Positions 18,194-33,143 of a DNA stretch of 64,000 nt are shown in pieces. Position 1 is the first letter of the stretch; each line of letters begins with the position of its first letter. This stretch comes from an uncultured Planctomycetia bacterium (GTDB lineage Bacteria > Omnitrophota > Gorgyraeia > 1-14-0-20-64-10), in the NCBI GenBank assembly GCA_964373715.1, contig CAYJVR010000001.1, forward strand, positions 269,888 through 333,887. Direction: 5' to 3'. A program made the translations under genes and the position numbers. The notes beneath the pieces were generated by a model, which was not told the origin of the DNA, searched no databases, and was given only the letters and a program-made list of their open reading frames with translations.

Positions 18194-18205
18194 GGGTTTA
18201 TCCTC

Positions 18206-19042
18206 CTAAGGGATGATGTCCAAAGCATAGTAAGGGTGGTTTTTCATCACTGCTGGAAAATCGTTCGGTGCCTGCTCAAGCGCCCGCGGGAACTTTGGAG
18301 GGTCGACCGGATGGATGTTGGCCATTGCCCTGTCGGACGGCCATTTTTCCCACACGTTGCTTACCCAGTCTTCCTTGATTTCGTGGGCGTGACTGAAGGT
18401 CTTGAACTTGTCTTTCATCGCGGCGGCGGACCGGGCGTATGAAAGATGGTAAAAAACGGCTTTCTCGGGCGGAAATTCGTAAACGGGCCCCAGGCTGTTG
18501 GTCTCGTTTTGCCCGGTGAACCGCAGGTCATAGGGGAATTTTATCCCCAGGATGTTCCGGCGCCGTGTCATCTTGAAGATCCGGCGGGGCCGCCAGGACA
18601 TCTCCTGGGCCGGGATCCGGTAGCGGAACGAGCGCCAGAAGATGTGGCATTTGATGATGAACGTGCCGGTGGCCGGCTGCTTCCCGATCTCCTCGCGTAT
18701 GTTTTTTAAATGGTCTTCCCGGTACACCTCGTCGCCGTCCACCAGCCAGTAATAGTCGGTGCCGTCTTCCAGGCAGAGTTTCATGCCGGTATTCCGGTGC
18801 TCCACTTCGGAGCCCCACACTCCTTTGACGACGGTGATCTTGGGGTCCGTTTTGGCGAGGGCGTCAACGATTGCCTCTGTCCCGTCCGGTGTGGATATTT
18901 CCCTGGCGTTGGGGTTGTAGGCGTTGTAAGGGGCCAGCCCGAGCAGAAGGAGGACTCTGTCCACCGCGGGGAGTATTCCCCGCACAGCCCATTCGAGATA
19001 CTCTTTTTCGTTGTAGACGCAGAAAACAGCCGTGATTTTCAT
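18206..19042 (-). CDS. putative GT-A fold glycosyltransferase (GT2-like)
   Basis: N-terminal ITAVFCVYNE and a DxD-like LVDGDE; it sits among GT genes. The family assignment is tentative. Confidence 0.45.
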   Translation of the reverse strand: MKITAVFCVYNEKEYLEWAVRGILPAVDRVLLLLGLAPYNAYNPNAREISTPDGTEAIVDALAKTDPKITVVKGVWGSEVEHRNTGMKLCLEDGTDYYWLVDGDEVYREDHLKNIREEIGKQPATGTFIIKCHIFWRSFRYRIPAQEMSWRPRRIFKMTRRRNILGIKFPYDLRFTGQNETNSLGPVYEFPPEKAVFYHLSYARSAAAMKDKFKTFSHAHEIKEDWVSNVWEKWPSDRAMANIHPVDPPKFPRALEQAPNDFPAVMKNHPYYALDIIP

Positions 19043-19079
19043 TTTTACCGCAGCATGGATTGGTTGGTTCGAGGCGCGG

Positions 19080-20066
19080 TTACCGCACCGCTTCCCCGTT
19101 CGAGAATTCCTCGCGGATGAGGAACAGGGGGCGCGCCTTCAGTTCATCGAAAATGACAGCGATGTATTCGGCGATGATCGCTAGCAGAAGGCCTTGAATG
19201 AAGCCGGTCATGCCCAGCAGCGCTGTTGTGGTTGCCCAACCGGGAATAGCAAGATTAGTGAACAACTTGACTATGATGGCAGACAGGCCGATCATAAACA
19301 AGGTAAATCCGTAAAGGATTGAGAGGATGCTGGCGCACCGTAAAGGAGTCTTGGAGAACGAGATAAGCGCTGTTTTTGCCAGCCGCAGCATCCCGCTGAG
19401 TCCCACGCGGCTTTTTCCCATGGTCCTGCCGGGCCTGTCGTAGGGGATGGTCGCTTGCTTGCCGCCTACCCACGCCCTTAACCCGGCAAAGTAACGCTCC
19501 TTCTCAGGCATGGCGTTTAAGATGTCCACCACCCGCCTGTCCATCAGGCAGAAAGTTCCTGCCTGTTTCGGGATCGGCGTGTCCGAAATCTTATCGAGCA
19601 AGAGATAAAAGAGGGCGATGAAACAGCGCGTGGCGAAAGATTCGCGGCGGGATTTCCGGAGGCCGTAAACCACCTCGGAACCTTTTTGCCACTGTTCGAG
19701 GAATTGCGGGATCAGCTCCGGCGGGTCTTGAAGATCTCCGTCCATGACGATGACCGCCCTTCCCCGGGAGGCCGTTAATCCGGCGCTGAGGGCCGGCATA
19801 TGGCCGAAACGGCGGAACAGGTTGATGACCCGCAGTTCAGGCAGGGTCCTGCTTAAGTTGACGAGCGTCGGGAGGGTTGAGTCGGTGCTCCCGTCGTTGA
19901 CGATGATAATTTCAAAGGGGATCTTCGTCTGCCGGCAGCTTTCTGCCAGGCGCCGGATCAGTTCGGGCGCGAGGGCCTCTTCGTTGAACAAAGGGGCCAC
20001 CACGGAAAGCCCGGGACCTCCCGACGGAGGTTGTTGGCCGGAACGTGGGCTTAGGTTTTGCGTCAT
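19080..20066 (-). CDS. polyprenyl-phosphate glycosyltransferase, ArnC/DPM1-like GT2
   Basis: LSVVAPLFNEE…IIIVNDGSTDST…VMDGDLQDPPE catalytic core plus two C-terminal TM helices. Confidence 0.75.
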   Translation of the reverse strand: MTQNLSPRSGQQPPSGGPGLSVVAPLFNEEALAPELIRRLAESCRQTKIPFEIIIVNDGSTDSTLPTLVNLSRTLPELRVINLFRRFGHMPALSAGLTASRGRAVIVMDGDLQDPPELIPQFLEQWQKGSEVVYGLRKSRRESFATRCFIALFYLLLDKISDTPIPKQAGTFCLMDRRVVDILNAMPEKERYFAGLRAWVGGKQATIPYDRPGRTMGKSRVGLSGMLRLAKTALISFSKTPLRCASILSILYGFTLFMIGLSAIIVKLFTNLAIPGWATTTALLGMTGFIQGLLLAIIAEYIAVIFDELKARPLFLIREEFSNGEAVR

Positions 20067-21632
20067 TCAGTGCTCCTTTTTTAAGACGGTCACCGGCGGC
20101 GCCTGCCCGTCGGTAAGAAACCGGTGATAACCCGGGTCAGGACGATTTTGCCAGGGAATATCGGGTGCGTCAAGGACAAGCTCCTTGTATCGGTGCTTGA
20201 TTTCGGCGTAGTAAGGGCTTTTAAAAAACTCGTTCGGTATCCAGTCCCTGCGCAGGATGATCCAGTCCGGGAATGTCTCATTCCGAAAGTCCCGCTCGTT
20301 GCGGACCTGTTCGACAGCCAGAGAGGTGTAGAAGATCAGCGGGTGTTCTTCATAAGGGGCTTTTATCGTCTGTCCGGCCCGGCTTTCTTTTTGAAGGAGT
20401 TCCACGATTCCGTCGATGGGGCCTCTGTAAGCATGGGTCAGCTCTCCGAGGAATTCCGCCGGGAGCGACCGTATCCGCACCTTCGGCGAAGAGAGTCTCG
20501 AGCGGATCGCTGGAATTTGTGCCCCCAAGAGGGCCAGCCCGGAGTGATGGATTGCGTCGGTGAGCAGCAGCGCGCCGGCCAGAATGATCCCCGTGGCTAT
20601 CTTTGCCCGGATCAGCCGGGCCAGCAGGGCCGCTTGGACCATGAGGAGGAGCGGAACCAGGAAAATGATGTAGCGGAAGTGCCGCTGTTCGGGTACCAGC
20701 ACCAGAAAGGCGAAACCGGCGGCGATAATCAAAGCGGTGAGCCGCCAACCTTGGCGTGTATTCCCGGAGGAATTCTCGGGAAGGGAACGAAAAGGCCCGC
20801 GCCAGGCCAATCGGAGAATAATCCAGAAAAAGATCGGCACCAGGAATTTGTTCGTCTGGCGGATGTAAAACTGGAAATGGTGGCTGATCTCTTTCCAGGA
20901 AAATCCCTTGTGGTGCTGCCCCGGATCCAGGTAAATGATCCAAGGGAGGGTGAGCGCCGCCAAAGGGATCAGGACCGCCAATCCCCTGCTCCACCGGTCC
21001 TTTTCCCTGTTTTTGGCCAGGAAATGGAGAGCGCAACCGGCCAGGAGGGGAACGAAAATTCCGTGATCGGAATGAAAAAGCAGGGTCAACGCCGCCGCAA
21101 ATTCGACGGACGAGAGGCTCTTTTTATGGAGGAAACGCCAGTAAGCGAGGATCGCCCAGAGCGTGAAGAGGGCCGCCGGCGCGTAGTACCTGCACTGCCT
21201 CATGTGGAGAAGGAACGGAACGCAGAGGACCAGGCTTAGGGTTGTCAGCCGGGCGGTCAGGGTGTCCGATGTCAGGCGTTTGCTTAACAGGTAAGCCAGC
21301 CAGATGGAGATGAGTCCCATCAGCGCGAATGGAACCCGGGCGGCCCATGTATCGGTCCCAAAAAGGGCGAAAGAGCCTGCGGCCAGATACATCGGCAGCC
21401 AGCTGTGGTAGGTCCAGGCGTAGTTTTCTTTGACCGTGAGGCTTGGGTTGAGCCGGTTGATTCCGTCGAACGCCCTGGGATAGCCGAAGGTAAGGATATT
21501 CTTCCCTAAAACGGCTGTTTCGGCTTCATCCTGCCAAAGACGCCCGTTGTCCAGCCGGGTAAAAAGAAGGACCGCCGCCGTCAGCAGAAAAAAGAGAATC
21601 CAAGGGTCAAAGGATAAGGAGCGTATTTTCAT
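20067..21632 (-). CDS. ArnT/PMT-like GT-C membrane glycosyltransferase
   Basis: 521 aa, more than 10 TM helices, and an N-terminal loop RLDNGRLWQDEAETAVLGKNIL typical of the GT39/GT83 (ArnT) family. It lies directly downstream of the ArnC-like gene. Confidence 0.7.
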   Translation of the reverse strand: MKIRSLSFDPWILFFLLTAAVLLFTRLDNGRLWQDEAETAVLGKNILTFGYPRAFDGINRLNPSLTVKENYAWTYHSWLPMYLAAGSFALFGTDTWAARVPFALMGLISIWLAYLLSKRLTSDTLTARLTTLSLVLCVPFLLHMRQCRYYAPAALFTLWAILAYWRFLHKKSLSSVEFAAALTLLFHSDHGIFVPLLAGCALHFLAKNREKDRWSRGLAVLIPLAALTLPWIIYLDPGQHHKGFSWKEISHHFQFYIRQTNKFLVPIFFWIILRLAWRGPFRSLPENSSGNTRQGWRLTALIIAAGFAFLVLVPEQRHFRYIIFLVPLLLMVQAALLARLIRAKIATGIILAGALLLTDAIHHSGLALLGAQIPAIRSRLSSPKVRIRSLPAEFLGELTHAYRGPIDGIVELLQKESRAGQTIKAPYEEHPLIFYTSLAVEQVRNERDFRNETFPDWIILRRDWIPNEFFKSPYYAEIKHRYKELVLDAPDIPWQNRPDPGYHRFLTDGQAPPVTVLKKEH

Positions 21633-21645
21633 AATCCGGAATAGG

Positions 21646-22713
21646 TTATGTTACAGCGCTGATGGCCGAAAGAACCTCTTCCGGCATGAGTTTTCTTAAA
21701 CAGGTGTTCTCCCATGGGCACGGCGGGAACCGGAATGTTTGATAGCAGGGACGGCAGGCCAGTCCTTTCGCTACGATCCGGTGGCCCGGCTTTCCTGGGA
21801 GAGGCCCGTAGACGGCGCCGTCCACAGGCCCAAAAATCGTCACTGTTTTTGTCCCCATCGAGGCGGCGAGGTGCATGAGCCCGCCATCGTTGCCTACCAC
21901 GAACGCGCATCTTTTGAGGATGCTTGCGATGGTGATCAAGGAGGGGATATCAGTGAGAGGAACCGGTTTGCTCCGCGATTGCTGCGCGACCGATTCGCAT
22001 AATTGTTGTTCCTGACGGTTGCCCAGCAGAAGGACGCGTGCGTTGTATTTCTCGCGGATTTGATCGGCGAGCTTGGCAAAATGGGGCGCGGGCCACTGTT
22101 TGTACGCGGCGTTGGGTCCCCAACTGGCTCCTCCTCCGGGGATAAGGGCGACCAGTTTCTCTTTTGAAGTGAACCCTTTTTCTCCGAGCATCCGGTCTCT
22201 TATTGTTTCGGTTCCGGAGGGAAGTTCAAAATCATGCCGGGTGGTGGAAGGCTTATGCAGGGCCATGAGCGGCAGGAGATCGAGGTAGTAGTCGTGGACC
22301 GGTTTAGCGTGGAACCCCTGGAGCGAGATCCGGTGTGTGAGAAATCGCCCCCGGTTTTTAAAATTGAAGCCGATCCTTTTCTTGATGCCGGCCAATGCGG
22401 CCGAGAAACCGATCTGCCAGCCGAGCGAGAGATCCACCAGTACGTCGATTTTCTCGCTCCGGATCTGTTCGACCGTCTTTTTGAGCTGGAGAAATCCCCC
22501 CATCTTCGAACGTTTCCACGCGGCGCGGAATTCGTCCTTTTCAAACACGGAGACATGGTCCAAGCTCTTCCATGCACGGACAAGCTCCTCTGTCCTGCGG
22601 TTACAGAGAAAGGAGAGGTAGTCTTTGGGTTTCGACTGGCGCAGAGCGTAAACGAGGGGGAGGCTGAAAAGAATGTCCCCTATCCCGAAAGGGTTGACGA
22701 TCAGTATTCTCAC
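21646..22713 (-). CDS. LPS heptosyltransferase (GT9, RfaF/WaaC/WaaQ family)
   Basis: MRILIVNPFGIGD N-terminus and NDGGLMHLAASMG C-terminal motif. Confidence 0.8.
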   Translation of the reverse strand: MRILIVNPFGIGDILFSLPLVYALRQSKPKDYLSFLCNRRTEELVRAWKSLDHVSVFEKDEFRAAWKRSKMGGFLQLKKTVEQIRSEKIDVLVDLSLGWQIGFSAALAGIKKRIGFNFKNRGRFLTHRISLQGFHAKPVHDYYLDLLPLMALHKPSTTRHDFELPSGTETIRDRMLGEKGFTSKEKLVALIPGGGASWGPNAAYKQWPAPHFAKLADQIREKYNARVLLLGNRQEQQLCESVAQQSRSKPVPLTDIPSLITIASILKRCAFVVGNDGGLMHLAASMGTKTVTIFGPVDGAVYGPLPGKPGHRIVAKGLACRPCYQTFRFPPCPWENTCLRKLMPEEVLSAISAVT

Positions 22714-23759
22714 AGGGCGGGTTCCGTTCTCTCAAGCAGCCGTTCTTCTGCCGCGGTTTCAACTTCCTGTACGGACGGGGAGAGAAGGATGCGGTTTTGG
22801 TGTCCCCACGGTTTCCAGCGGTTGAGCAGAGGCCCGTGGTTCCGCGGCGCAACAACAATCGTGTAAGTGCCGACGGCTGCTGCGACATGGGTCGGCCCGC
22901 TGTCGTTTGAAATAAGCAGGCGGCAGCGTCTTAAGAGGCCGGGGAGGGCGCCCAGCGGTACTCGGTCCACGAGGTCCGTCAATCCTGAAGGGACGGCTTT
23001 TTTCCACGATGCCGCCTGCTCCGCTGTTTGAGCTGCGCCGATAATTAATACCGGGTGCCCTTTTTTGGATAGCCGCCCTCCCAGCTCAAGGAACGATTCC
23101 AGGGGCCAGTTTTTCACCGGGTTGCTGGTCCAGGGGTGGATCGCAATCGGGCGGACCGAATGGGAGATGCCGTGTGAAAGGAGGATCCGGTCCGCGGTCT
23201 CTTCCCAGGCGGTTTGCGGCGGAAGTTCAATGACGGCCGGGCCTGGTTTTGTTTCAAGCAGGCGCGCTAGTTCGAGGTTATACTCCACCTCGTGGAGGGT
23301 GCGCCGGTTTTTGGAATCCTCGATGGAGCGATTTAAAAGGAATCCCCATTTTCTTCTATACCCCACCCGGATTGGAATACGTGCGAGGAACGAAGCGGTG
23401 TGAAAAAACCGGCTGGGGTTGAACACGACCGCCGCGTCGAACCGCTCAGCGCGCAGCGTCCTGCCCCACCGGAAAGAGCTTTTCCAGCCGCTGCCTTCAG
23501 CCGGATCCCACTCGATGATCCTGTCCAGATCCGGATGCCCTTCGAGCAGAGGTTCTTGGCCTTTCTGAAGAAGGAGGGTGATTTCCGACTCCCGGTAGGT
23601 TTCCCTGATCGCGCGAATCGCCGGCAGGCACATCAGGAGATCCCCGATGCGGTCTGTCCGTATCAAAAGGATGCGCCTGAGGGGACGGCTCAGGTTATTC
23701 CTCCGGCCGGCTTTTTCAAAAGGAATTGGCTTGAACCGAAAATAATTCCGGCCAGGCAC
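22710..23759 (-). CDS. LPS heptosyltransferase (GT9), second copy
   Basis: ILLIRTDRIGD and SNDSGPTHVAAAVG motifs. The true start may lie downstream of the tool start, because the ORF overlaps the ligase gene by 70 nt. Confidence 0.75.
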   Translation of the reverse strand: MPGRNYFRFKPIPFEKAGRRNNLSRPLRRILLIRTDRIGDLLMCLPAIRAIRETYRESEITLLLQKGQEPLLEGHPDLDRIIEWDPAEGSGWKSSFRWGRTLRAERFDAAVVFNPSRFFHTASFLARIPIRVGYRRKWGFLLNRSIEDSKNRRTLHEVEYNLELARLLETKPGPAVIELPPQTAWEETADRILLSHGISHSVRPIAIHPWTSNPVKNWPLESFLELGGRLSKKGHPVLIIGAAQTAEQAASWKKAVPSGLTDLVDRVPLGALPGLLRRCRLLISNDSGPTHVAAAVGTYTIVVAPRNHGPLLNRWKPWGHQNRILLSPSVQEVETAAEERLLERTEPAL

Positions 23760-24949
23760 CAGAAAAGAACCGCCTGCCGAAGCGAGTAAAGGTTCGTGTC
23801 GAACGCCGATTGCACCAGGAAGGCGAGCAGGCCTGAGAGCAGCCCCATCAAAGGCAGACCTGTTTCCGTATCAAGGAGGTGTTTGCGCAGGCTTTTTAAA
23901 CACTCGCGGAAAAGCCGCACGAGAAAAAGGAGAAAGCAGAAAAGAGAAATGACCCCTGTCTCCGCAGCGATCTGGAAGAAGCAGTTATGCGCATAGGCCG
24001 GGCCTTGGTTCGGGCCGGAGACGTAAGACATGTAATTGGCCATAAAGGTGTTCAGGCCGTGCCCCGTGATCGGCCGGGCTTTGATCATTTCCAACGCAGC
24101 GGCCCACATAATGATCCTCTCCTGCGACCCGGGGTCCGCAAAACCGATGGTTTTCAGAAGATTTTTCTGTTTGAAAACGACGAACACAAAGAGGCTGACA
24201 ACCAGCGATGTCCCCGCGATGAGCCACATCCGTTTGTTCTTGAAGTTAAGCAGGAGCAGGAACAGAATGCCTGAAGCCAGCCCCAGCATCGCCCCCTTTG
24301 ATTCCGTCCAGGAAATCGAGCCGATAAGCATCAGCCAGAGGGGCCACCCCGCCGCTTGCCGCCGAAGAGGCTGATGCATGAGAGAAGGAATGATCGCTAA
24401 GGAAACGACCATAAGAAATGTAGCCATATCAATGGGGTTGGAATAAGGCCCAACCATCCGCTCATAAATGAGTGGTTTTCCTCTGATGGGGTCCAGAGGG
24501 ACGCCGGGCCCTGAAAAATGGAGGATCGCCCATTCCTGAATCAATCCGTGCGCCACCACGAACAGGCTGGCGACCAGCAGCAGCTGGACGACCCGTTTTG
24601 CCGTTTCCGGGTGGTTTGACACGTCGGCGAGGATCAGGAAGAAGAGGATGTACTCGAATGTTTTGTAGATGAGGCCTTCCAAGCTGGTGAGAGGGTAGTT
24701 GCTGAATGAGACGGACCAGGCGCAGATCGCGGCGAAAGCGAGCAGTGGCCTCAGGATGGGTTGCCCTTCATTGGTTGCCCAAACCGATCGGGAATTGCCT
24801 TTCCACGCCTGCCAGCCTGCGAGCCAGGCAATCAGTGAAATGGGAAAAGCGATTTCGATTGCCGCTATTGAAAAAGGAATAGCGAAACAGAGGATGTAGA
24901 GCATCCCCCGCCCGATCTTTTCCATCAGAATTGTCCGGCTGTTTTTCAT
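23690..24949 (-). CDS. O-antigen ligase/polymerase family membrane protein (Wzy_C-type)
   Basis: 419 aa, about 11 TM helices, and a periplasmic loop with …RPITGHGLNTF…. Confidence 0.7.
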   Translation of the reverse strand: MKNSRTILMEKIGRGMLYILCFAIPFSIAAIEIAFPISLIAWLAGWQAWKGNSRSVWATNEGQPILRPLLAFAAICAWSVSFSNYPLTSLEGLIYKTFEYILFFLILADVSNHPETAKRVVQLLLVASLFVVAHGLIQEWAILHFSGPGVPLDPIRGKPLIYERMVGPYSNPIDMATFLMVVSLAIIPSLMHQPLRRQAAGWPLWLMLIGSISWTESKGAMLGLASGILFLLLLNFKNKRMWLIAGTSLVVSLFVFVVFKQKNLLKTIGFADPGSQERIIMWAAALEMIKARPITGHGLNTFMANYMSYVSGPNQGPAYAHNCFFQIAAETGVISLFCFLLFLVRLFRECLKSLRKHLLDTETGLPLMGLLSGLLAFLVQSAFDTNLYSLRQAVLFWCLAGIIFGSSQFLLKKPAGGIT

Positions 24950-26757
24950 GCCTCCGGGGCCGTGATCCCTTCCCCGGTTGGGATGGAGGTGGCCACCTGC
25001 CAGGTGATGCCGTTTTCTTCGCAGTAGGCTTGTATCTGTTGCAGGAGGTTTGCCGGCGGGCGCGGGATGGCAATAAGGATTTCCCGGATTCCGAATTCCT
25101 GCACGACCCTTCCGAGCTCTTCCCTGGATCCGAAGATCGGGATGCCGTGGATCCGTCTGCCGTGCATCGCCCTGTCGTCATCGAGGAAACCGACAATGCG
25201 TCTTTTTCCCTGCGCCGTCTGTTTGAGTTGGCGCAGCAGCATCTCCCCGGTGTCCCCGGCGCCTACGATAAGAACCGGCACGGCGGTCCGGATGGAGGCG
25301 TTAATCCACTCGTCGAGCAGGCGTTCGGCGACCCTCGCCCCGCTGATCGTCACGAACAGGAGCAGGCTGTCAATCACAAAGACCGCCCTTGAATAACCCT
25401 CGAACCGCCACAGAAACAAGATGGAGAGGGCGGAAAAGACCGATCCAAGTGTGACGGCCCGGAAAGTGTTGACCAGGTCCGGCAGGCTTGTGTATCTCCA
25501 AAGGCCCTTGTAGAGCCCGCAGACGAAAAAGCAAAGCATCTTGATCAGGATGATCAGAGGCAGGGATTTAAGAATCAGCCCGACCAAGTCCGGCGTCAGG
25601 TTGGCCTCGAACCGGAGCGCGTGGGCCATGACGTAAGAGGCGCAGATCAGCAGAAAGTCGATGATCACCTCGGCGATCCGGCGCTTATGCATCAGCATGG
25701 TGTCAATGAAGGTGATTTTTGGTTCGGTTTCCAGCGTTTTAGCCCCGGTGTAGACACGGACCCTGCTGAGATAGACCCCGCCGACCAGCAGCAGGCCGGC
25801 GGATAGAAGCCAAACGCCGGCTATAGCTAAGGCGTTCTGGTTTGCCAGGACAACGCTTAAGAGGCCGAACGCGGCGCTGATCCCGTAAAGAGTGAAGACC
25901 ACTTGACGGGTTGTCAGCCCCAATATCCCCAGCCTGTGGGAGAGGTGGTCCGTCCCTCCCTGAAACGGGTGTCTCCCGTGTATGACGCGGGAGATCGTGA
26001 CAAAAATGGTGTCGAAAATGGGGACGGCTAGAAGCAGTGTGGGCAGCCCTAGTATGCTCAATAAATGGGTGGATGGGTGTGTGCTCCCCATCAGCGTGAG
26101 TGCTCCGAGACCAAGCCCGAGGACCTGGCTCCCGGAGTCTCCCATGAAGATCTTTGCCGGAGGGAGGTTATACCGCAGAAACCCAAGCGTTGCTCCTGCC
26201 AGGCTGGCTGACAGCAGAGCGGTGGACCATACCCCGGCCTGTACCGCGTGCCACGTGCAAAAGAAGGCTGCGATGACGCCGATTCCGCCGGCCAACCCGT
26301 CCATATTGTCCATCAGGTTGAACGCGTTCATGATGAGGACAAGCCACCCGATAGTGATCGGGGTGGAGAGCCAAGGGAAAGTTTCAATCGGGAATTGGAT
26401 GCCGGAGAGCATGACGAGGCACCCGGCGATGATTTGGAGGACCAGCTTTGTAAACGGTTCGAGGCGTTTGACGTCGTCCCACGCGCCGGTGGCCAGCATG
26501 AGTGTTGTGGCGATAAAGAGGCCGATGAACCGGGCGTCCTGATGGATAAGGGATGCCATTGTCGCGAGAAAGCCGGCGGCGATTGCCAGCCCCCCCAAGC
26601 GGCCGATGGCCCTCCTGCCCCACCGGTCATTGGCCGGTTTCGAAACAGAGCCGATGTTTACAGCGAATTTCCGGATTTGCGGGGTCAGCAGCAGGGACAC
26701 GAACCATGCGCCCAGACCAACGAGCAGAACTTGTTCGAGCGGAGATCTATTGAACAT
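24946..26757 (-). CDS. WecA/MraY-family polyprenyl-phosphate N-acetylhexosamine-1-P transferase (GT4) fused to a C-terminal PglF/WbaP-type Rossmann (CoA-binding-like) domain
   Basis: GT4 motifs GAWDDVKRL, NAFNLMDNMDGLAGG and FMGDSGSQVLG. Extra TM helices follow, then VLIVGAGDTGEMLLRQL…RIVGFLDDD…GIPIFG. Confidence 0.75.
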   Translation of the reverse strand: MFNRSPLEQVLLVGLGAWFVSLLLTPQIRKFAVNIGSVSKPANDRWGRRAIGRLGGLAIAAGFLATMASLIHQDARFIGLFIATTLMLATGAWDDVKRLEPFTKLVLQIIAGCLVMLSGIQFPIETFPWLSTPITIGWLVLIMNAFNLMDNMDGLAGGIGVIAAFFCTWHAVQAGVWSTALLSASLAGATLGFLRYNLPPAKIFMGDSGSQVLGLGLGALTLMGSTHPSTHLLSILGLPTLLLAVPIFDTIFVTISRVIHGRHPFQGGTDHLSHRLGILGLTTRQVVFTLYGISAAFGLLSVVLANQNALAIAGVWLLSAGLLLVGGVYLSRVRVYTGAKTLETEPKITFIDTMLMHKRRIAEVIIDFLLICASYVMAHALRFEANLTPDLVGLILKSLPLIILIKMLCFFVCGLYKGLWRYTSLPDLVNTFRAVTLGSVFSALSILFLWRFEGYSRAVFVIDSLLLFVTISGARVAERLLDEWINASIRTAVPVLIVGAGDTGEMLLRQLKQTAQGKRRIVGFLDDDRAMHGRRIHGIPIFGSREELGRVVQEFGIREILIAIPRPPANLLQQIQAYCEENGITWQVATSIPTGEGITAPEA

Positions 26758-26789
26758 CGAGTTGGTTATAACCGGGGATAGCTGCTTTT

Positions 26790-27776
26790 CTAAGAGTTGC
26801 TCGCAACCAGTTTCGGTTCCTTGCGGTAGTATCCGATAACGCTCTCGAGTATCTTTTTCAACCCCATAGTCGGGGTGAAGCCGGCGTAACGGCGGGCCTT
26901 GCTGATGTCAGGCACGCGGCGGAACATGTCTTCGAAGCCCTCTTCGTAAGCCTCGTTGTATGGGACAAACCGGATTTCAGACCTGCTGCCTGTGAGATCG
27001 ATAACCATCTGTGCTAACTGAAGGATAGTGACTTCCTCCTGGCTGCCGAGATTAAAGGCCTCTCCGGCCGATTCAGGAAGCAGCATAAGCCGGGTCATCG
27101 CCCCGACGGCGTCACCGACATGGAGGAAACACCGGGACTGTTTCCCGTTGCCGTAAACGGTGATCATTTCCCCCTTCAGCGCCTGTTGGACAAACCGGGG
27201 GATGACCATCCCGTAGTGGCCGGTTTGCCGCGGTCCCACCGTGTTGAAAAGTCGGACGATAAAGGTGGGAAGCCCCTTCTCTTTCCAGTAGTTGTACGCG
27301 AGGATTTCGTCCACCGCTTTCGAGGTGGAATAGGACCACCGGCTCTTTAATGGGGAGCCCAGTATCCGGTCTTCATCTTCCTTGAGGGAGGAATTGGTAT
27401 TCTTCCCGTAGATTTCGGAGGTGGAGGTGATCATCACCTTCCGTTGGTACCGGTTGGCCATCTCGAGCACGACTTCCGATCCGCGAATGTTAGTCCAAAG
27501 GGACTCCAGCGGTTTTTTAACGATTAGTTCGACTCCGACGGCCGCTGCCAAGTGGAAGATCGCGTCGCACCGCTCGGCGTATTTGTCAACAAGCCGTTCG
27601 TCCAATATTGAGCCGACCACCAACTGGAATTGCGGGCTGTTTCTTAAATGGGCGATGTTGTCCGTCCGTCCGGTGGACAGATTATCTAAGGCGACAATTT
27701 CATGCCCTTCCGAGATAAGGAGATCCGAAAGGTGGGACCCGATAAACCCCGCTCCGCCGGTAATGAGAAATTTCAC
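26790..27776 (-). CDS. NAD-dependent UDP-glucuronate decarboxylase-like extended SDR (UXS/ArnA C-domain type)
   Basis: [20 protein letters not shown] and YSTSK, with a GTG start preceded by an AGGGG SD. It lies in the same locus as ArnB/ArnC/ArnT-like genes. Confidence 0.65.
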
Positions 27777-27853
27777 GTTTTTGCCCCTGGTGTCCGCCTC
27801 TAGTAAAAAATATTCGCGTAACAGAATTTCCAGAGGTTATCTTAGCACGGTTT
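27777..27853 (-). promoter_or_regulatory. 77-bp AT-rich intergenic region, candidate internal promoter
   Basis: One of only three non-coding gaps over 70 bp in the glycan locus; contains runs of A/T (tagtaaaaaatattcgcg). Confidence 0.25.
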
Positions 27854-29056
27854 TTAGCTTGAAACCAGGCTTTCATAAAGCCGGAGGATGTCCCGGATAA
27901 GCCTGTCGGCGCCGTATTTTTCCCGCACGTAAAGACGGCCCCGGCGGCCCATTTCCTGGCGCAAGGAGGCCTCTTTGAGCAGGAATTCCAGGCCTTGTGC
28001 CAACCCTTTGTGGTCTCCTGAGCGGACCAAGAGGCCATGCTCGCAGATGGAAAAGGCCCTCCCTTCCGAGGGGGACGGATCCTTGCCTCCCCTGTTCAAA
28101 ATATCCCTGACTCCGCCGACATCGGTGGAGATCACCGGCTTGGAGGCGGCAAGCGCTTCAATGAGAGAGACGGGGGTCCCTTCGTTGCGGGAGGTCAGGC
28201 AGACGACGTCCATCGATTGGTAGACGGAGGCCAGATCTTGCCGCCAGCCGAGGAATTGGACGCGGCCGGACAGGCCCAAACGCCGGCTTTCCTCTTCAAG
28301 GCTGGGGCGCAGCTCCCCGTCGCCGACGATCACGGTCTCAATCTCGGGCAGCGAAGTTGTGTCAGACAGCTCCCTGACCGCTTTGAGGAAAATGCCCGGT
28401 TCTTTGATCGGGACCAGCCGTCCGACAAAACCGATCCGCAGCGGTTTTCCCGGCAACGAGTGTCCGTTGCTGAGCTCAAAAAGGTTTTCCAGGTTAAGCC
28501 CGAGTGGGATCACCTCGATTTTTTCAGGAGCGGCGGCGCCCAGCCGCAGAAGGTCCTCTTTCACCGCTGTGCTCACGGCGATGAGCTTGTCGGTCCTTTT
28601 TGCCAGGAAGCGTTCGATGCCGAGAAAGAGGCGGTTTGCCCATGGCAGGAAATAGCCCTCCAGCGCATGGCCGTGGAATGTGTGCGCGATTTTCAGCGGG
28701 CGCCTTGTCGTGAGCCTGTAAAGGATCCCGGCCGCGCGGCCCAGCGTGCCGGCTTTTGCGGTGTGGGTGTGGAGTATATCCGGGCGCTCCTGCCGGAGAA
28801 TCCGGAATATTTTCAGGAAGGCGGCGAGGTCTTTAAGCGGGCTGAGGGAACGCTGCAGTTGGGAGATGCGGACCATCCGGCAGGGGTATTTCTCGAGCAG
28901 ATAGCCGGCATCGGCTTCGGAGGCAGACACCCGGCCTGTCACTAAAATTGTTTCCCACCGGGCGTTGTTGAGCGCGTTGGAGAGGATGGCGACGTGGTGC
29001 GCCGGCCCTCCCACGTTCATTCGGGCGATCACGCGGACGATCTTAAGTTTTTGCAT
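27854..29056 (-). CDS. glycosyltransferase family 4 (GT-B fold)
   Basis: C-terminal VGDGELR…FLGWRQD…[27 protein letters not shown], a GT4 signature. Confidence 0.75.
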
Positions 29057-31172
29057 CGCTGTTACGGGAGAAAATGCCCAGAGGGAATAAAAGAAGGCAC
29101 GCCAGGATCATCGGCAGGCGCAGCCTGAAGAGAGTCCCCGCGTTGGGGATGACCAGCCCAAGAAGAAGAGAAGAGAGAAGGATAAACCCCAGGAGAGACC
29201 AACTAACGGTTTCTCCAGCGCGCAGAAGTCGCCACCCGCCCCGTATTATCCAGGGCAGCAGGAGGTAAAACAGCAGGGTTTCAACGCTTCCGAAAATTCG
29301 GAAAATCCCCGTTGTGGCCTCCTGATCAAACCACTGAAGAGGAAAAGGGGCAAACCAAGCCACTAAAAGGGCTCTGGGGGTGAACCGGACCAGGTCCTCC
29401 GGTTTTCGGAAGGTCACCTCAGGATAGAGCACAGAACGCCCTCCTTCGCCGAGGATGCCTCTGCGGACGTTCATCAAGCTTTGGAGAGAAGCCTGTCCGG
29501 CGAAGGATCTGCCGATGGCCTGCAGGTGCGGGAGAAAGAGAGATGAGATGGGCCGCAGCGGAAGCAGGGGCCAGATTTCGGAAGGCAGTATTCCCCATTC
29601 GTAGGTATATCGGTTGTAAAGAGATCTATGGAGTATACGAAGATTTCCCGTTCTGCCCCGCTGCTCGATCATAATTGCTTGCGGGTTGAAAATAGTGATC
29701 GACTCGAGATTCGCCATGCCGCGATGGTTTATTTCCCCATCTATTTGTCCAGTCACCGAGATGTCCCAGACCACATAATCGGTGGAGCGGACGACCAGTT
29801 TATCTGGATGCGCGAAGACCGTGCGGTGTTTCATGCCGCGGAAGGCGCGGACAATTTCCCTCACGCGGTTCATCGGCCAGATTTGCAGGCCGATCCTTTT
29901 CCATGAAAAGGGTTCCTTTGTTGAAGAGAGGACCGCTGATTCGCCGATAAATCGGGCAGACTCCTGACTTTTCGGTTTGCTGAGCTCAATGAACTTAGGG
30001 TTGACGATCCACATCCGGTGCACCCTCTTATCGGTGAGCTCCAGGATTCGCGGATTGGCCGCACCGGCGGAGAGAGCTTCCTCAGGGGATCTTTCAATGA
30101 TGGTTTTGGAAGGCATGGTGGCTAGCAGAAGCTGGCGGAGCTTGAACGGTTTTCTTGCCTTAACGTGTTTTGTCTCTTGTTTGGTTTCTTGTTTTGCCTC
30201 TTCCTGCATCAGTTTTTTCAGCACCATTTCAATCGAAAAAGAATCTTCCGAGAGCAGCCAGTGCTGTTGTTCTAGTCCCTCCTCCTGTTCCTCAAATTCC
30301 AGCAGCGGCGGAGGTTCGTTATAGACGATGATGAACCATCTCTGCGGATAGGGTGTCTGGTAGGCGAAGGCCATGGCGAATGTGGAGATTATGGCGATGC
30401 CTAAGGCGATGCAGGCCGGTCGGAATCGTCTGTGGAGGAGGTTCCAGAGAAACGTGGAGCCGAAGGCCAGGAGCATGGAGAGAGCCATGGCGATGCCCAG
30501 ATAGGACCGGAATTTAGTAATGGCAGCGGCGGATACGAAGAGAATAAGCCACCAGGAAAGCCAGTTCAAAAAAGAAACAGGGCGCTGCGCCGTGATTTGT
30601 CGCCAGAGGGTAATGCCGGAAGCAAGAACCCCGAGCGCCAGCAGACCGCAGGAGGAATCTTTCAGCAATTGCGTGGACCAAAGAATGCTGGAAGGCCATA
30701 GAGCCACCAGCCAAGCGGCCAGCAGTGCGGTACGCTTTCCCGAGAGATGATGAACAATCCGATAGGCGAGCAGTACCTGAACAGAGGAGATAAAAACGTT
30801 GATGAGGATTCCGTTCAAAGGGTTCGGTCCGAACAGCCTGTAAATTCCTGCTAAAAGGATGTAATACTCGATTGCGCCGTGCGTGAAAACGGGATAAGGG
30901 ACGCCCGTTTTCCAGGAAGAAAGGATCCGGATGGCGTAATCATGGGAGGCTACCGAATCCATCGCGAAATACCAGAACCCGGGCACCGGGTGTTGTTGAG
31001 CGGAGAGAATGGGCCATTTGTAGAAGGAGGCGAGATAAAAGAACAGGGCCGCCGCCAGGCGCAGGCCCGCGGCCCACCCCACCAGTTTATAGAGCGAACG
31101 GTCCGCGCCGATCCAGCGGGACAGAAGAACCAGCGCGCAGGATAAGCCGGCAAGGAGAGCCAGAGGAGTCAT
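29043..31172 (-). CDS. large polytopic membrane protein of unknown function (possible GT-C-like)
   Basis: 709 aa with an N-terminal TM bundle, an acidic/lysine low-complexity segment (EQEEGLEQQ…KQETKQETK), a central soluble region and C-terminal TM helices. No confident family match from sequence alone. Confidence 0.4.
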   Translation of the reverse strand: MTPLALLAGLSCALVLLSRWIGADRSLYKLVGWAAGLRLAAALFFYLASFYKWPILSAQQHPVPGFWYFAMDSVASHDYAIRILSSWKTGVPYPVFTHGAIEYYILLAGIYRLFGPNPLNGILINVFISSVQVLLAYRIVHHLSGKRTALLAAWLVALWPSSILWSTQLLKDSSCGLLALGVLASGITLWRQITAQRPVSFLNWLSWWLILFVSAAAITKFRSYLGIAMALSMLLAFGSTFLWNLLHRRFRPACIALGIAIISTFAMAFAYQTPYPQRWFIIVYNEPPPLLEFEEQEEGLEQQHWLLSEDSFSIEMVLKKLMQEEAKQETKQETKHVKARKPFKLRQLLLATMPSKTIIERSPEEALSAGAANPRILELTDKRVHRMWIVNPKFIELSKPKSQESARFIGESAVLSSTKEPFSWKRIGLQIWPMNRVREIVRAFRGMKHRTVFAHPDKLVVRSTDYVVWDISVTGQIDGEINHRGMANLESITIFNPQAIMIEQRGRTGNLRILHRSLYNRYTYEWGILPSEIWPLLPLRPISSLFLPHLQAIGRSFAGQASLQSLMNVRRGILGEGGRSVLYPEVTFRKPEDLVRFTPRALLVAWFAPFPLQWFDQEATTGIFRIFGSVETLLFYLLLPWIIRGGWRLLRAGETVSWSLLGFILLSSLLLGLVIPNAGTLFRLRLPMILACLLLFPLGIFSRNSDAKT

Positions 31173-31178
31173 CTTTTT

Positions 31179-33143
31179 TTACACATTTTCGTGGACCGCG
31201 GTTGTTTCCTTGGCCAGAGGTTTCTCCTGATGCATATAATGCTGAAGCCACAACTCAAGCATAAGCAGAGTCCACAGATGATGGCCGTAATCCTTTTCAC
31301 CCGAAATGTGCCTTGAAACGAGGTTTTTCAGCCGCTCCGGAAGTATGAGTTGATGGATCTGCGCTTGTGAAGAAAGAAGGATCCCCGACATCCACTCCTT
31401 CAGGGGTCCCCGGAACCATCGGCCGACCGGGATCGAAAATCCCTGCTTCGGCCTCTGAAGGTGCTGTTGGGTGAATATCCCTTTTTGCGTCTCTTTCAGC
31501 AGGTGTTTCAGAGACCGTCCCTTCACTTTCATCTGTCCAGGAAGGCTCGCGAGAAATTCCATGAGCTGGTGGTCCAACAGAGGGGCCCTGGCTTCGAGGC
31601 CGTGCGCCATCGTGCAGATGTCCATCTTGACGAGCAGGTCGTTGGGCAGGTAGAAGGAGGTATCCACCGCCAGCGCCGCATCCACCCCGTCCAAATCTTC
31701 CAGCCCGTCGAAAAGCCTGTTGAGCAGCGCCGCCGACTTAGAGTGCTTCGTTTGCGCTGCCATCTGCGGAGTGTAAAGCGCCCGCTTCTCCTCATCGGAA
31801 AAGAGGCCCGTCCAATGGAGCCAGCGCATTCCCCTCGGTATGCCGGCGGCCCGGAAGAATCTCTTTGGGCTCATCCGACCGTTCAACAGGGCCAGGCGGT
31901 CGGGCCAGGCTCCCATCACCGGTTCGATCAGTCCCCGCCGCAGCCAGACAGGGAGATCGTTGTAAGAATCGGCCAGACGCATCGCTAAATGCCGGTAATA
32001 CCCGCCGAACGCCTCATCGCCGCCGTCCCCGTTTAAAACGACGGTGACTTCCCTGCTGGCTATCTGCGCCAGGTAGTAGGTGGGCAGCGCGGAGGAATCG
32101 GCGAAAGGCTCTCCGAACTGCCGGATCAGTTTCGGGATGATCGCGGAGGCGTTCGGCCGGACGATCTGGTCATGGTGGTCGGTGTTGAATTTCTTGGCGA
32201 CCGCCCGGGCGTAAGGCAGCTCGTTGAAGCTTGCCTCCTCGAATCCGATGGAGAATGTCTTCAGCCTTTGCCCGCTCATCAGGCGGCTGGCGACCGAAAC
32301 GACGGCGCTGGAATCGACCCCTCCGCTTAAGAGAACCCCGAGCGGAACATCGGAGCGGAGCCTCAGGCGGACCGATTCCTCCAGCAGCCTGTTGATCTCT
32401 TCGACCGCCTCTTCGGCGCTGATTTTGATCTTTCGGTGGAAATCCAGCTCCCAGTAGCGGGTGAGCTGAAGTTCCTTCCCATCGTACAGCAGGTAATGGG
32501 CCGGCGGGAGTTTCTGCACCCCTTCGAAAGCGGTTCCGGGGGAGGGCACGCACATGAAGGAGAGATAGTGGTGGATTGCCTCCCTGTCGAGCCGCCGTTC
32601 GATCGCCGGGTGCTGCAGCAGAGATTCCAGCTGGGAGGAGAAGACCATCTGTCCGGAGCGGAACGCGTAAACAAGCGGTTTTTTCCCGAGGCGGTCGCGC
32701 GCCAGCATCAGGCGCTGACGGGTTTCATCCCAGAGGGCGAAGGCGAACATCCCTCGGAGATTCCGGACGCATTCGGGACCTTCAGCTGCGTAAGCCTGCA
32801 GGATCACCTCAGTATCGGATTGCGTCCGGAATTTACAGCCTTTGGCAGCGAGCGAGCCGCGGAGTTCCCGGTAGTTGTAGATTTCACCGTTGAAGACGAT
32901 TTGGAGCGCGCCGGTTTCATCGGCCATCGGCTGGGCGCCGCTGGCCAGGTCAATGACCTTCAGCCGCCTGTGCCCTAAACCGCAGGATATCCCTCCGTTC
33001 GGCCGGCCGGCCTGCGCGGCCGGGTTCAGGTAAAACCCTTCCGCGTCCGGTCCACGGTGGTTTAAAGCGGAGGTTATCCGTTTTAAAAGTTCCGGCTCAA
33101 TCGGCCGTCCTTCCCGGTCCACAATCCCTGCGATACCGCACAT
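31179..33143 (-). CDS. asparagine synthetase B-family glutamine amidotransferase
   Basis: MCGIAG Ntn nucleophile and SGGVDSS PP-loop. In a glycan locus this family usually amidates a sugar carboxylate. Confidence 0.85.
   Translation of the reverse strand: MCGIAGIVDREGRPIEPELLKRITSALNHRGPDAEGFYLNPAAQAGRPNGGISCGLGHRRLKVIDLASGAQPMADETGALQIVFNGEIYNYRELRGSLAAKGCKFRTQSDTEVILQAYAAEGPECVRNLRGMFAFALWDETRQRLMLARDRLGKKPLVYAFRSGQMVFSSQLESLLQHPAIERRLDREAIHHYLSFMCVPSPGTAFEGVQKLPPAHYLLYDGKELQLTRYWELDFHRKIKISAEEAVEEINRLLEESVRLRLRSDVPLGVLLSGGVDSSAVVSVASRLMSGQRLKTFSIGFEEASFNELPYARAVAKKFNTDHHDQIVRPNASAIIPKLIRQFGEPFADSSALPTYYLAQIASREVTVVLNGDGGDEAFGGYYRHLAMRLADSYNDLPVWLRRGLIEPVMGAWPDRLALLNGRMSPKRFFRAAGIPRGMRWLHWTGLFSDEEKRALYTPQMAAQTKHSKSAALLNRLFDGLEDLDGVDAALAVDTSFYLPNDLLVKMDICTMAHGLEARAPLLDHQLMEFLASLPGQMKVKGRSLKHLLKETQKGIFTQQHLQRPKQGFSIPVGRWFRGPLKEWMSGILLSSQAQIHQLILPERLKNLVSRHISGEKDYGHHLWTLLMLELWLQHYMHQEKPLAKETTAVHENV

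Follow-up and report, generated by a model that had tools for sequence, protein, structure and literature searches.

A single gene of the window (the whole 64 000-nucleotide stretch of DNA analysed here) encodes a polytopic phosphoglycosyl transferase (PNPT) of the WecA/MraY superfamily fused to a C-terminal module of four transmembrane (TM) helices and a Rossmann-like domain. The protein is most likely membrane-bound and initiates the synthesis of a sugar chain for the cell surface. Our reading, to which a probability of roughly 0.6 is assigned, is that it is a WecA/WbpL-like initiating PNPT with a non-catalytic nucleotide-binding module that would act in feedback by UMP, as a dimerization or partner platform, or as both.

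The module has been studied in other proteins. In WbaP, its Rossmann-like domain (DUF) mediates dimerization and binds UMP, UDP and UTP, the only compounds in a screen of 20 nucleotides that stabilized it; the dimer interface is mostly made by a domain-swapped β6/β7 hairpin, and UMP inhibits the enzyme (PMC10942596). The same 2024 structure paper described the presence of the module in both large monotopic PGTs and PglF-like dehydratases as 'puzzling' and proposed that it senses UMP (PMC10942596). In Myxococcus xanthus EpsZ, a large monotopic PGT activated by the response regulator EpsW, a hairpin-less DUF serves as a platform for regulated dimerization and partners (PMC12802240). No published description of a polytopic PGT with a four-TM and Rossmann module was found in a literature search that mostly excluded subscription journals.

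Architecture and occurrence of the fusion

The gene is one ATG-started open reading frame (ORF) of 603 residues, which is divided as follows.

24946..26757, minus strand: PNPT::4TM-Rossmann fusion, complete CDS (603 residues plus stop); ORF list, identical protein in independent assemblies, full-length homologues
25753..26757, minus strand: PNPT of the WecA/MraY superfamily, residues 1–335, 11 TM helices; PF00953, motifs, Foldseek, AF2
25693..25752, minus strand: cytoplasmic linker, residues 336–355, after the conserved ..VRVY.. junction; alignment, pLDDT, K/R-rich
25294..25692, minus strand: four-TM-helix bundle of the module, residues 356–488; AF2, model and WbaP alignments, invariant residues
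24985..25293, minus strand: cytoplasmic Rossmann-like DUF (CoA_binding_3 core), residues 489–591; PF13727, 3nkl, Foldseek, AF2, invariants
24946..24984, minus strand: unconserved, disordered tail, residues 592–603 and stop; alignment, pLDDT <50, sequence

The AF2 model (pLDDT 75.7, pTM 0.73) places 11 TM helices, a low-confidence linker, four TM helices and a Rossmann-like domain of five strands and three helices in this order; confidence is low for the linker and for the placement of the domains relative to each other. Foldseek matched the N-terminal half of the model to MraY and GPT, and the C-terminal half to WbaP (8t53), 3nkl and Rex. The initial annotation had described a WecA/MraY-type core followed by extra TM helices and a Rossmann element, and this was borne out by PF00953, PF13727 and the four additional TM helices: both domains scored above threshold in the domain search, and the predicted topology comprises 11 + 4 helices. 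Since these helices are combined with K/R-rich cytoplasmic loops and a K/R-rich linker, the Rossmann domain is placed in the cytoplasm. The segments that had first drawn attention lie in both halves, namely NAFNLMDNMDGLAGG (residues 144–158), VLIVGAGDTGEMLLRQL (495–511), RIVGFLDDD (520–528) and GIPIFG (538–543).

The fusion is genuine and widespread among uncultured bacteria. The concern that a sequencing or assembly error had fused two adjacent genes has practically no probability left and was ruled out: two independent assemblies and runs yielded the identical ORF in the same gene context, both halves share one frame in 80 of 80 GTDB loci, whose genomes carry the labels of about eight phyla, and GC3 is uniform throughout the ORF. 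Furthermore, both domains are present in each of the 240 nr90 homologues listed, including the best 120 matches, which are all about 600 residues long, and the VRVY junction motif and the linker are conserved, the latter with variable length and sequence (residues 336–355; pLDDT <50 at residues 331–357). The architecture had been called atypical, which holds relative to model organisms but not in view of its spread: it occurs in at least 80 genomes at the species level, assigned by label to about eight phyla, with homologues of ∼600 residues in thousands of 90 %-identity clusters. In public databases these homologues are named 'hypothetical protein' (NCBI) or plain 'WecA' (JGI).

The transferase half

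Glycos_transf_4 (PF00953) was matched at residues 78–224 with an E value of 2.4e-35 (122 bits against a cut-off of 27), and the 11 helices of the AF2 model span residues 6–331. The model matched MraY (5jnq/6oyh) with a TM-score of 0.72–0.74 on the target, and GPT was also matched. The motifs D94-D95, N144..N147..D150-N151-M152-D153-G154-L155, FMGD207SGS and D270-H271-x-S273-H274-R275 align with the DD, NxxNxxDxxDGL, FMGD and His-cluster motifs of MraY and do not vary among 31 homologues with identities as low as 48 %. The PNPT half is thus predicted from its intact motifs to be most likely catalytically competent.

Residues 21–303 match the WecA model of NCBIfam, with a score of 98 bits, while the cut-off of the WecA equivalog TIGR02380 (UDP-GlcNAc:Und-P GlcNAc-1-P transferase) is 326. 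With a score so far below the cut-off, specificity for GlcNAc cannot be assumed, and the protein is best classed by sequence as WecA-like, with no demonstrable WecA orthology.

The C-terminal module

The TM helices of the module (residues 356–382, 389–412, 425–450 and 457–488 in the AF2 model) are joined by loops with the conserved motifs LRFE, GLYRGxWRY and WRFEGYSR, and the bundle aligns with positions 1 to ∼130 of the WbaP/WcaJ/EPS_sugtrans models and with residues 16 to ∼140 of WbaP. CoA_binding_3 (PF13727) was matched at residues 420–583 with an E value of 6.3e-12 (46.3 bits against a cut-off of 25). The DUF consists of strands E493, E519, E539, E559 and E585 and three helices, with G499-A-G501-x-x-G504 and L525-D526-D527 as its invariants; G499, A500, G501, G504 and D526 are invariant over about eight phyla. 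These residues, together with the conserved TM-loop motifs, indicate that the module is under purifying selection. The β6/β7 hairpin is absent from the DUF in both the alignment and the AF2 model, and the protein ends 15 residues past β5. The DNA of the tail carries a Shine–Dalgarno-like GGAGG, and the stop codon overlaps the start of the following Wzy_C gene (ATGA).

The initial annotation saw the hallmarks of two initiating enzymes in one protein. Residues 365–591 match positions 1–223 of the WbaP/WcaJ/EPS_sugtrans models, that is, their non-catalytic N-terminal half, and the scores for TIGR03022/03023/03025 are 45–75 bits against cut-offs of 295–411. Searches with Pfam, NCBIfam and tblastn revealed neither a Bac_transf (PF02397) nor a Polysacc_synt_2 (PF02719) domain in the fusion. 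As judged from this domain content, the C-terminal part is a non-catalytic accessory module of a four-TM bundle and DUF rather than a second initiating enzyme, which leaves a single predicted initiating activity. The candidate of two initiating enzymes in one protein was therefore rejected, as no Bac_transf domain occurs in the ORF or in the window.

Relatives and plausible origin of the module

It had also been stated that this element otherwise stands at the N-terminus of WbaP-class transferases and of PglF/WbpM/CapD, and the NCBIfam, Foldseek and profile matches agree. The domains of 150 representatives were assigned by phmmer against Pfam-verified reference domains. In a search of 1.84 billion representatives, the best relatives outside the own family were proteins with CoA_binding_3 and Polysacc_synt_2, matching at E values of 1e-37 to 1e-45, and none of the top 150 was of the WbaP type. 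The family profile matched the WbpM-like fragment 3nkl with 57 bits over 91 positions (E = 2e-14; 1e-5 with the single sequence of the fusion), and 3nkl was superposed on the DUF by Foldseek with an r.m.s.d. of 2.0 Å. WbaP was matched with 40 bits over 207 positions, a match that extends over TM bundle and DUF alike (profile 18–224 to WbaP 16–221, E = 2e-9). By sequence, the module is clearly nearer to the dehydratase class than to the WbaP class.

A different ligand would follow if the Rossmann domain were a Rex-like NAD(H) sensor that couples glycan initiation to the cellular redox state. Rex was matched by NCBIfam (E = 5e-7), by Foldseek and through PDB entry 5zz5 (E = 2e-6 for the family profile, 0.007 for the fusion sequence alone), and the canonical GxGxxG with an acidic residue at the end of β2 is typical of NAD binding. 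However, this likeness is confined to the generic Rossmann core, with scores far below those of 3nkl or WbaP, and the homologous DUF of WbaP was stabilized by only the three uridine nucleotides among the 20 nucleotides screened (PMC10942596). Redox sensing is thus considered to be very unlikely.

In some less common relatives, the module is followed by a complete dehydratase or by a GT4. Triple fusions of ∼950 residues with Polysacc_synt_2 (P0124, P0129 and P0134) are intermediate in distance between the double fusions and PglF-type proteins. The double fusion may most plausibly have arisen by fusion of a PNPT with an entire PglF-type dehydratase, the state seen in these triple fusions, and subsequent loss of the dehydratase domain; the neighbour-joining tree of the module is saturated, with the split between PNPT-linked and PglF-type modules in two of 200 bootstraps. 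A separate class of 47 'module-only' representatives was discarded, as most of them start with the last PNPT helix and ..VRVY.., which marks them as truncated fusion fragments. A few others begin with the module itself and may represent either stand-alone genes or PglF-like proteins that were cut short.

Such an origin raises the question of whether the module is a mere leftover, serving now as membrane anchor or structural ballast with neither ligand nor regulation. The existence of triple fusions with a complete dehydratase at an intermediate distance to PglF-type proteins would fit, as would the end of the protein just behind the DUF core, which resembles a truncation. However, lineages of 32–50 % overall identity share GAGxxG, DD and several TM-loop motifs without change, and an invariant nucleotide-binding signature with conserved loop motifs is not expected of a functionless relic. 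In addition, the architecture has been kept in thousands of lineages, and a leftover is regarded as improbable.

Genomic neighbourhood

A cassette of GT4, UXS-like SDR, fusion and Wzy_C is conserved across phyla. The neighbouring genes in the window are as follows.

23690..24949, minus strand: Wzy_C (O-antigen ligase/polymerase-like) membrane protein, 419 residues, translationally coupled, downstream; PF04932, E = 6.7e-24
26790..27776, minus strand: UXS-like extended SDR, 328 residues, upstream of the fusion; Pfam Epimerase/GDP_Man_Dehyd, PDB match, synteny
27854..29056, minus strand: GT4 glycosyltransferase, 400 residues, upstream cassette member; Pfam, synteny
31179..33143, minus strand: AsnB-like glutamine amidotransferase, 654 residues, recurrent upstream neighbour; Pfam

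GT4 was found within 3 kb upstream of the fusion in 58 of the 80 loci. Downstream of the fusion, Omnitrophota loci and about 40 acidobacterial loci have a gene of the Wzy_C family, and 40 of 81 loci contain a member of the AsnB-like family, mostly upstream and in the same orientation. The fusion is the sole PNPT of the window, where tblastn revealed no Bac_transf domain and no second four-TM and Rossmann module; on this gene content, it appears to be the only initiating transferase of the window. An Rfam scan of the window returned no RNA families.

The adjacent SDR suggests another role for the module, as a docking site through which a soluble sugar-nucleotide enzyme of the SDR type is recruited to the transferase. 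The membrane-tethered SDR of PglF/WbpM would thereby be recreated in trans and a modified UDP-sugar channelled into the pathway, with the upstream UXS-like SDR as the candidate. In the closest relatives (PglF-type proteins and triple fusions), the module is covalently joined to an SDR domain. Furthermore, SDR homologues (52–72 % identity, more conserved than the fusion) are the immediate upstream neighbours, in the same orientation, in about 45 of the 80 loci across phyla, and lie directly downstream in two Chloroflexota loci. However, the best PDB match of the SDR is the UDP-glucuronate decarboxylase UXS1 (E = 1.5e-61), so that it is of the UXS/ArnA type and not of the Polysacc_synt_2 type, and the SDR genes of the window are only ∼25 % identical to the PglF-type catalytic domain. 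In about a third of the loci GT4 is directly upstream of the fusion and no SDR is adjacent, and the adjacency is equally explained by an SDR that makes the donor sugar for GT4 or the PNPT. Docking of the SDR is consequently judged to be unlikely. The SDR was also rejected as the detached dehydratase of a split PglF, given its UXS/ArnA-like type, the ∼25 % identity and its position upstream instead of downstream.

Proposed function

In the preferred reading of an initiating PNPT with a regulatory module, the PNPT probably transfers a HexNAc-type sugar 1-phosphate from a UDP-sugar to undecaprenyl phosphate with release of UMP, a step that would start the glycan made by the surrounding cluster of at least 36 kb. 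The 11th TM helix would bring the chain back to the cytoplasm, where the linker leads to the module, and the Rossmann domain would bind a nucleotide through the invariant GAGxxG...DD site. By analogy with the DUF of WbaP, we infer that this ligand is a uridine nucleotide or a UDP-sugar. The module may tune the activity of the transferase through product feedback by UMP and/or provide a dimerization or partner-docking platform at the membrane. As both WbaP and polytopic PGTs release UMP, the feedback logic proposed for WbaP is transferable to the fusion.

[quoted passage not shown] The thousands of sequences and the dehydratase-bearing intermediates support the idea that the module is a general regulator or assembler of UDP-sugar-consuming membrane enzymes and not the property of a single enzyme family. 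It is tentatively suggested, as a possibility held with less confidence than the reading above, that the module is a portable control unit, independent of superfamily, on monotopic PGTs, polytopic PGTs and SDR dehydratases, three mechanistically unrelated chassis, and on combinations of them, which in the fusion would sense the product or nucleate a complex. If this is true, the module would make the PGT allosterically sensitive to UMP, or would gather the co-conserved SDR and GT4 into a complex at the membrane; the limiting pool of undecaprenyl phosphate would be gated for a glycan pathway conserved in Omnitrophota, Acidobacteriota and other phyla. The fusion offers a clean test system, in which UMP is released and the module is a terminal, deletable domain. 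Moreover, the cassette of GT4, UXS-like SDR, fusion and Wzy_C serves as a marker of a so far unstudied surface-glycan pathway of uncultured bacteria that are abundant in soil and groundwater.

Comparison with known systems

Rex shares the generic Rossmann core with its GxGxxG loop, with weak matches in sequence and fold; in contrast to Rex, the fusion is membrane-embedded and has no DNA-binding domain, and the likeness is far weaker than that to 3nkl or WbaP.

The large monotopic PGTs WbaP (Salmonella enterica, 8t53), WcaJ and CpsE contain a homologous module, in both the TM bundle and the DUF, with the same placement relative to the membrane. Their catalytic superfamily is unrelated, the fusion being polytopic and devoid of Bac_transf, and the domain order is reversed. 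Compared with WbaP, the fusion lacks the hairpin, and its glycine loop is the canonical GAGDTG instead of the degenerate GNGKNA of WbaP, so that the ligand of the DUF may not be the same. EpsZ, although a monotopic PGT, has a DUF with the same core of five strands and three helices without the dimerizing hairpin. This common hairpin-less core suggests, by analogy, that dimerization or activation may need a partner; no EpsW-like receiver protein adjoining the fusion was seen in the conserved neighbourhood.

PglF (Campylobacter jejuni), WbpM (Pseudomonas aeruginosa) and Cap5D/CapD are the closest sequence class for the module, and 3nkl is its best PDB match, sharing the conserved GAGxAG and F(I/L)DDD. 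In these proteins the module is N-terminal to the dehydratase, whereas in the fusion it is C-terminal to the transferase, and the Polysacc_synt_2 catalytic domain that is retained in the triple-fusion relatives is missing.

With PNPTs of the WecA/WbpL/TagO type (PF00953), the N-terminal 335 residues share the 11-TM topology, the predicted MraY-like fold and all of the cytoplasmic motifs (DD, NxxNxxDxxDGL, FMGD and PFxxxxDHxxHRL), and the genomic role is likewise initiation, within a glycan cluster that includes Wzy_C. The scores nevertheless lie far below the equivalog cut-offs of both WecA and MraY and, compared with the solved polytopic PGTs that were matched (MraY and GPT/DPAGT1), only the fusion has the 268-residue C-terminal extension of four TM helices and a Rossmann domain.

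Domain composition and topology of the fusion

The minus-strand gene at 24946–26757 is one ATG-started open reading frame (ORF) of 603 amino acids that contains every motif quoted in the initial annotation, which had proposed a WecA/MraY-type transferase core fused to a PglF/WbaP-type Rossmann domain. In Pfam, PF00953 (Glycos_transf_4) matches residues 78–224 (E = 2.4e-35) and PF13727 (CoA_binding_3) matches residues 420–583 (E = 6.3e-12), both above the curated cut-offs, as that proposal requires. In NCBIfam, the WecA model covers residues 21–303, and residues 365–591 correspond to positions 1–223 of the WbaP, WcaJ and EPS_sugtrans models, which is only their N-terminal noncatalytic half. Both halves had been regarded as hallmarks of initiating enzymes; for the C-terminal half this has to be given up, since neither Bac_transf nor Polysacc_synt_2 was found in the ORF using Pfam. 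Furthermore, no Bac_transf, second polytopic phosphoglycosyl transferase (PNPT) or second module occurs anywhere within the 64 kb window. The C-terminal half corresponds to the '4-TM bundle + DUF' accessory module, which was defined for large monotopic phosphoglycosyl transferases (PGTs) and noted in PglF-like dehydratases, the only two hosts named in that work (PMC10942596).

A structure of the fusion was predicted with AlphaFold2 using 31 homologues as input (pLDDT 75.7, pTM 0.73). The model contains 11 TM helices in the PNPT half (residues 6–331), a low-confidence linker (331–357), four further TM helices in the module (356–488), a five-stranded, three-helix βα domain (493–588) and a disordered 12-residue C-terminal tail. 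In Foldseek searches of the PDB, the first half superposes on MraY and human GPT (TM-score 0.72–0.74 on target), and the second half matches Salmonella enterica WbaP (8t53, 244 columns), the WbpM-like fragment 3nkl (r.m.s.d. 2.0 Å) and also Rex. Hydropathy and charge analysis also fits a topology of 11 + 4 helices with the N-terminus outside, in which the linker, the Rossmann domain and every catalytic loop of the PNPT are predicted to be cytoplasmic. The Rossmann-like domain, with its invariant nucleotide-binding signature, is carried on its own 4-TM bundle. That this domain is a Rex-like NAD(H) sensor is highly improbable, as the nucleotide screen of WbaP speaks against such sensing.

Two conserved motifs, LRFE (residues 381–384) and WRFEGYSR (residues 450–457), map to the side of the bundle that is predicted to face the periplasm, and the FSR part of this 'RFE' region is also aligned in WbaP.

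25294–25692, minus strand: LRFE/WRFEGYSR motif region of the 4-TM bundle

Because of these motifs the bundle may do more than anchor the protein, for example by binding a lipid or a lipid-linked head group.

By its motifs and family match, the N-terminal half is a bona fide PNPT with one intact active site. The family-invariant residues in the alignment are D94/D95, N144-x-x-N147-x-x-D150-N-M-D153-G-L155, D207 (FMGDSGS) and D270-H271-x-S273-H274-R275, and the motifs align with the corresponding ones of MraY. Although the fusion is WecA-like, it scores 98 bits against an equivalog cut-off of 326 (NCBIfam), and the donor sugar therefore cannot be assigned as that of WecA. At the level of sequence, both the PNPT active site and the module are evidently under strong purifying selection. 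It is unlikely that the module is a functionless relic, a reading against which its conservation pattern speaks.

Authenticity and distribution

Two independent read-set assemblies contain the identical protein and the same neighbouring genes, and the possibility of two genes joined by a sequencing error, raised in the initial annotation, is not borne out. The best 120 clusters at 90% identity (100 to 48% identity to the fusion) all contain proteins of ∼600 amino acids with both Pfam domains, the named members being Candidatus Omnitrophica MAGs. A scan of GTDB species-representative genomes with the fusion gave at least 599 candidates. Alignments of the 80 best all span about residues 20–585, with both halves in the same reading frame (80/80 loci). 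The submitter labels of these 80 genomes comprise Omnitrophota, Planctomycetia, Nitrospinota, Desulfobacterota, Chloroflexota, Heliomicrobium, Miltoncostaea and Acidobacteriota (Pyrinomonadaceae, Blastocatellia and Chloracidobacterium). When a Chloracidobacterium-type protein was used as the query, 7961 of the 8000 scored candidates had E ≤ 1e-30, and both domains were present in all 120 matches listed. The architecture is abundant in metagenomes.

The VRVY junction motif between the PNPT and the module is conserved, the linker residues T353, L355, K358, R360, E363, D367 and F368 are kept in the family alignment, and GC3 is flat along the ORF (0.71–0.79). An artefactual fusion is ruled out by the independent assemblies, the 80 in-frame loci, the conserved junction and the flat GC3. 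Homologues are named 'hypothetical protein' (NCBI) or WecA (JGI), whereas no name is attached to the exact protein of the window.

Genomic context

The gene lies inside a minus-strand glycan-biosynthesis cluster that extends from at least 11.5 kb to about 48 kb of the window. The cluster encodes several GT2s, a GT28-like protein, a GT4, a GT1 + DUF218 protein, two GT9 heptosyltransferase-like proteins, Wzy_C, three SDRs, an AsnB-like amidotransferase, a DegT aminotransferase and methyltransferases, together with the membrane and capsule proteins included below.

17072–21632, 26790–27776 and 37061–43065, minus strand: Arn-pathway-like ingredients
20067–21632, 37061–38440 and 41728–43065, minus strand: three PMT_2-type GT-C membrane proteins
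24946–24975, minus strand: ATGA overlap between the TGA stop of the fusion and the start codon (ATG) of the Wzy_C gene downstream
29043–31172, minus strand: 709-amino-acid ORF between the AsnB-like gene and the GT4
34114–36066, minus strand: 650-amino-acid protein, GT1-type glycosyltransferase domain (residues 257–399) and C-terminal DUF218 (residues 487–639)
43881–47946: two Capsule_synth (KpsC/KpsS-like) proteins, after the GC-dip genes

Within the unconserved tail of the fusion, a GGAGG precedes the Wzy_C start by a few bases; together with the ATGA overlap, this suggests that the putative initiating transferase and the Wzy_C protein are translationally coupled.

Gene order was compared by clustering ORFs from the 80 loci and the window. 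The recurrent order is [carbamoyltransferase], [PMT-like], AsnB-like, [RmlA-like], [RmlC-like], GT4, SDR, fusion, [TPR + CBM protein], Wzy_C, in which the order from AsnB-like through GT4, UXS-like SDR and fusion to Wzy_C is kept across phyla (window 22710–33143, minus strand; GTDB loci L002–L080), with a TPR + CBM_4_9 protein between the fusion and Wzy_C in Acidobacteriota. The GT4 is upstream of the fusion in 58 of the 80 loci and the SDR directly upstream in about 45; at 35–50% identity, the fusion is less conserved than this SDR (52–72% across phyla). The SDR, encoded at 26790–27776 in the window, is closest to the UDP-glucuronate decarboxylase UXS1 (E = 1.5e-61), followed by ArnA and dTDP-glucose dehydratases, and we infer that its product is a modified UDP-sugar for use by the GT4 or the PNPT. 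From this conserved neighbourhood, the fusion is the predicted initiating enzyme of a conserved pathway. The module might alternatively be a docking site for an SDR, which is improbable.

The Arn-pathway-like ingredients (UXS/ArnA-like SDRs, a DegT aminotransferase at 40521–41678, several GT2s and PMT_2s) hint at Und-P-sugar-dependent periplasmic glycosylation beside the Und-PP pathway. The 709-amino-acid ORF has no Pfam match and contains a large charged central region flanked by about six N-terminal and two C-terminal hydrophobic helices; an unclustered ORF occupies its position in several Omnitrophota loci. The GC content dips at 42001–44000 (0.507 versus ∼0.58 elsewhere in the window), coinciding with a PMT_2 membrane protein (41728–43065) and a methyltransferase (43008–43778). 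An Rfam scan of window positions 1–64000 gave no family at the gathering threshold.

Relatives of the module

A phmmer search with residues 335–603 against 1.84 billion representative proteins gave 11 790 matches at E ≤ 1e-3, 355 of them at E ≤ 1e-30. Architectures were assigned to the best 150 using Pfam-verified reference domains.

Architectures among the best 150 of the 11 790 module matches
PNPT + module: 80
Module only: 47
Module + Polysacc_synt_2 (PglF type): 15
Bac_transf + module + Polysacc_synt_2: 4 (∼830 amino acids; P0230, P0231, P0244, P0225)
PNPT + module + complete Polysacc_synt_2: 3 (936–975 amino acids; P0124, P0129, P0134)
PNPT + module + GT4: 1 (1042 amino acids; P0258)
Module + Bac_transf (WbaP type): 0

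The majority of the 47 proteins with the module alone begin at the last PNPT helix and the VRVY junction, and so represent pieces of the fusion that lack its N-terminal part. The Bac_transf of the ∼830-residue proteins is a small monotopic PGT. Since dehydratase fusions headed by PNPT and by Bac_transf were both seen, either PGT superfamily can sit N-terminal to a PglF-type protein.

The profile of the cross-phylum module alignment scored 57 bits over 91 positions against 3nkl, whose GAGSAG...FIDDD matches the GAGDxG...FLDDD of the fusion family, and 40 bits over 207 positions against WbaP, in which the glycine loop is degenerate (GNGKNA). Judged by these scores and the best 150 architectures, the module is homologous to both the dehydratase and the WbaP classes and is nearer to the former. 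PNPT-linked and PglF-type modules were not separated in a neighbour-joining tree of 104 modules (2/200 bootstraps). The modules of the triple fusions (PNPT + module + dehydratase) group together at an intermediate position, with a mean distance to PglF-type modules of 1.25, compared with 1.48 for those of the double fusions. A PNPT that joined a whole PglF-type dehydratase and later lost the SDR domain would fit this pattern, which does not prove such an order.

Discussion

Both parts of the fusion are well known, and their combination is trivially detectable with Pfam. A full-text literature search, with most subscription-journal papers outside its coverage, returned no description of a polytopic PGT with this module. 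The fusion represents no new enzymology, and its role is one that we infer. What it contributes is a third class of host for the accessory module, together with intermediate architectures, and it draws attention to a conserved glycan cassette that is as yet unstudied.

The WbaP dimer is held together by its DUF, which UMP, UDP and UTP stabilize (PMC10942596). The PNPT reaction of the fusion would also release UMP, and the module would most likely provide feedback from the product or nucleotide status and/or serve as a dimerization or partner platform, which would limit the drain on Und-P. The DUF of the fusion has exactly the five-strand, three-helix core reported for WbaP and EpsZ (PMC12802240). 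The β6/β7 hairpin that forms the domain-swapped dimer of WbaP is absent from the fusion; in EpsZ, the DUF of which is also hairpin-less, a response regulator is apparently needed for the active dimer (PMC12802240).
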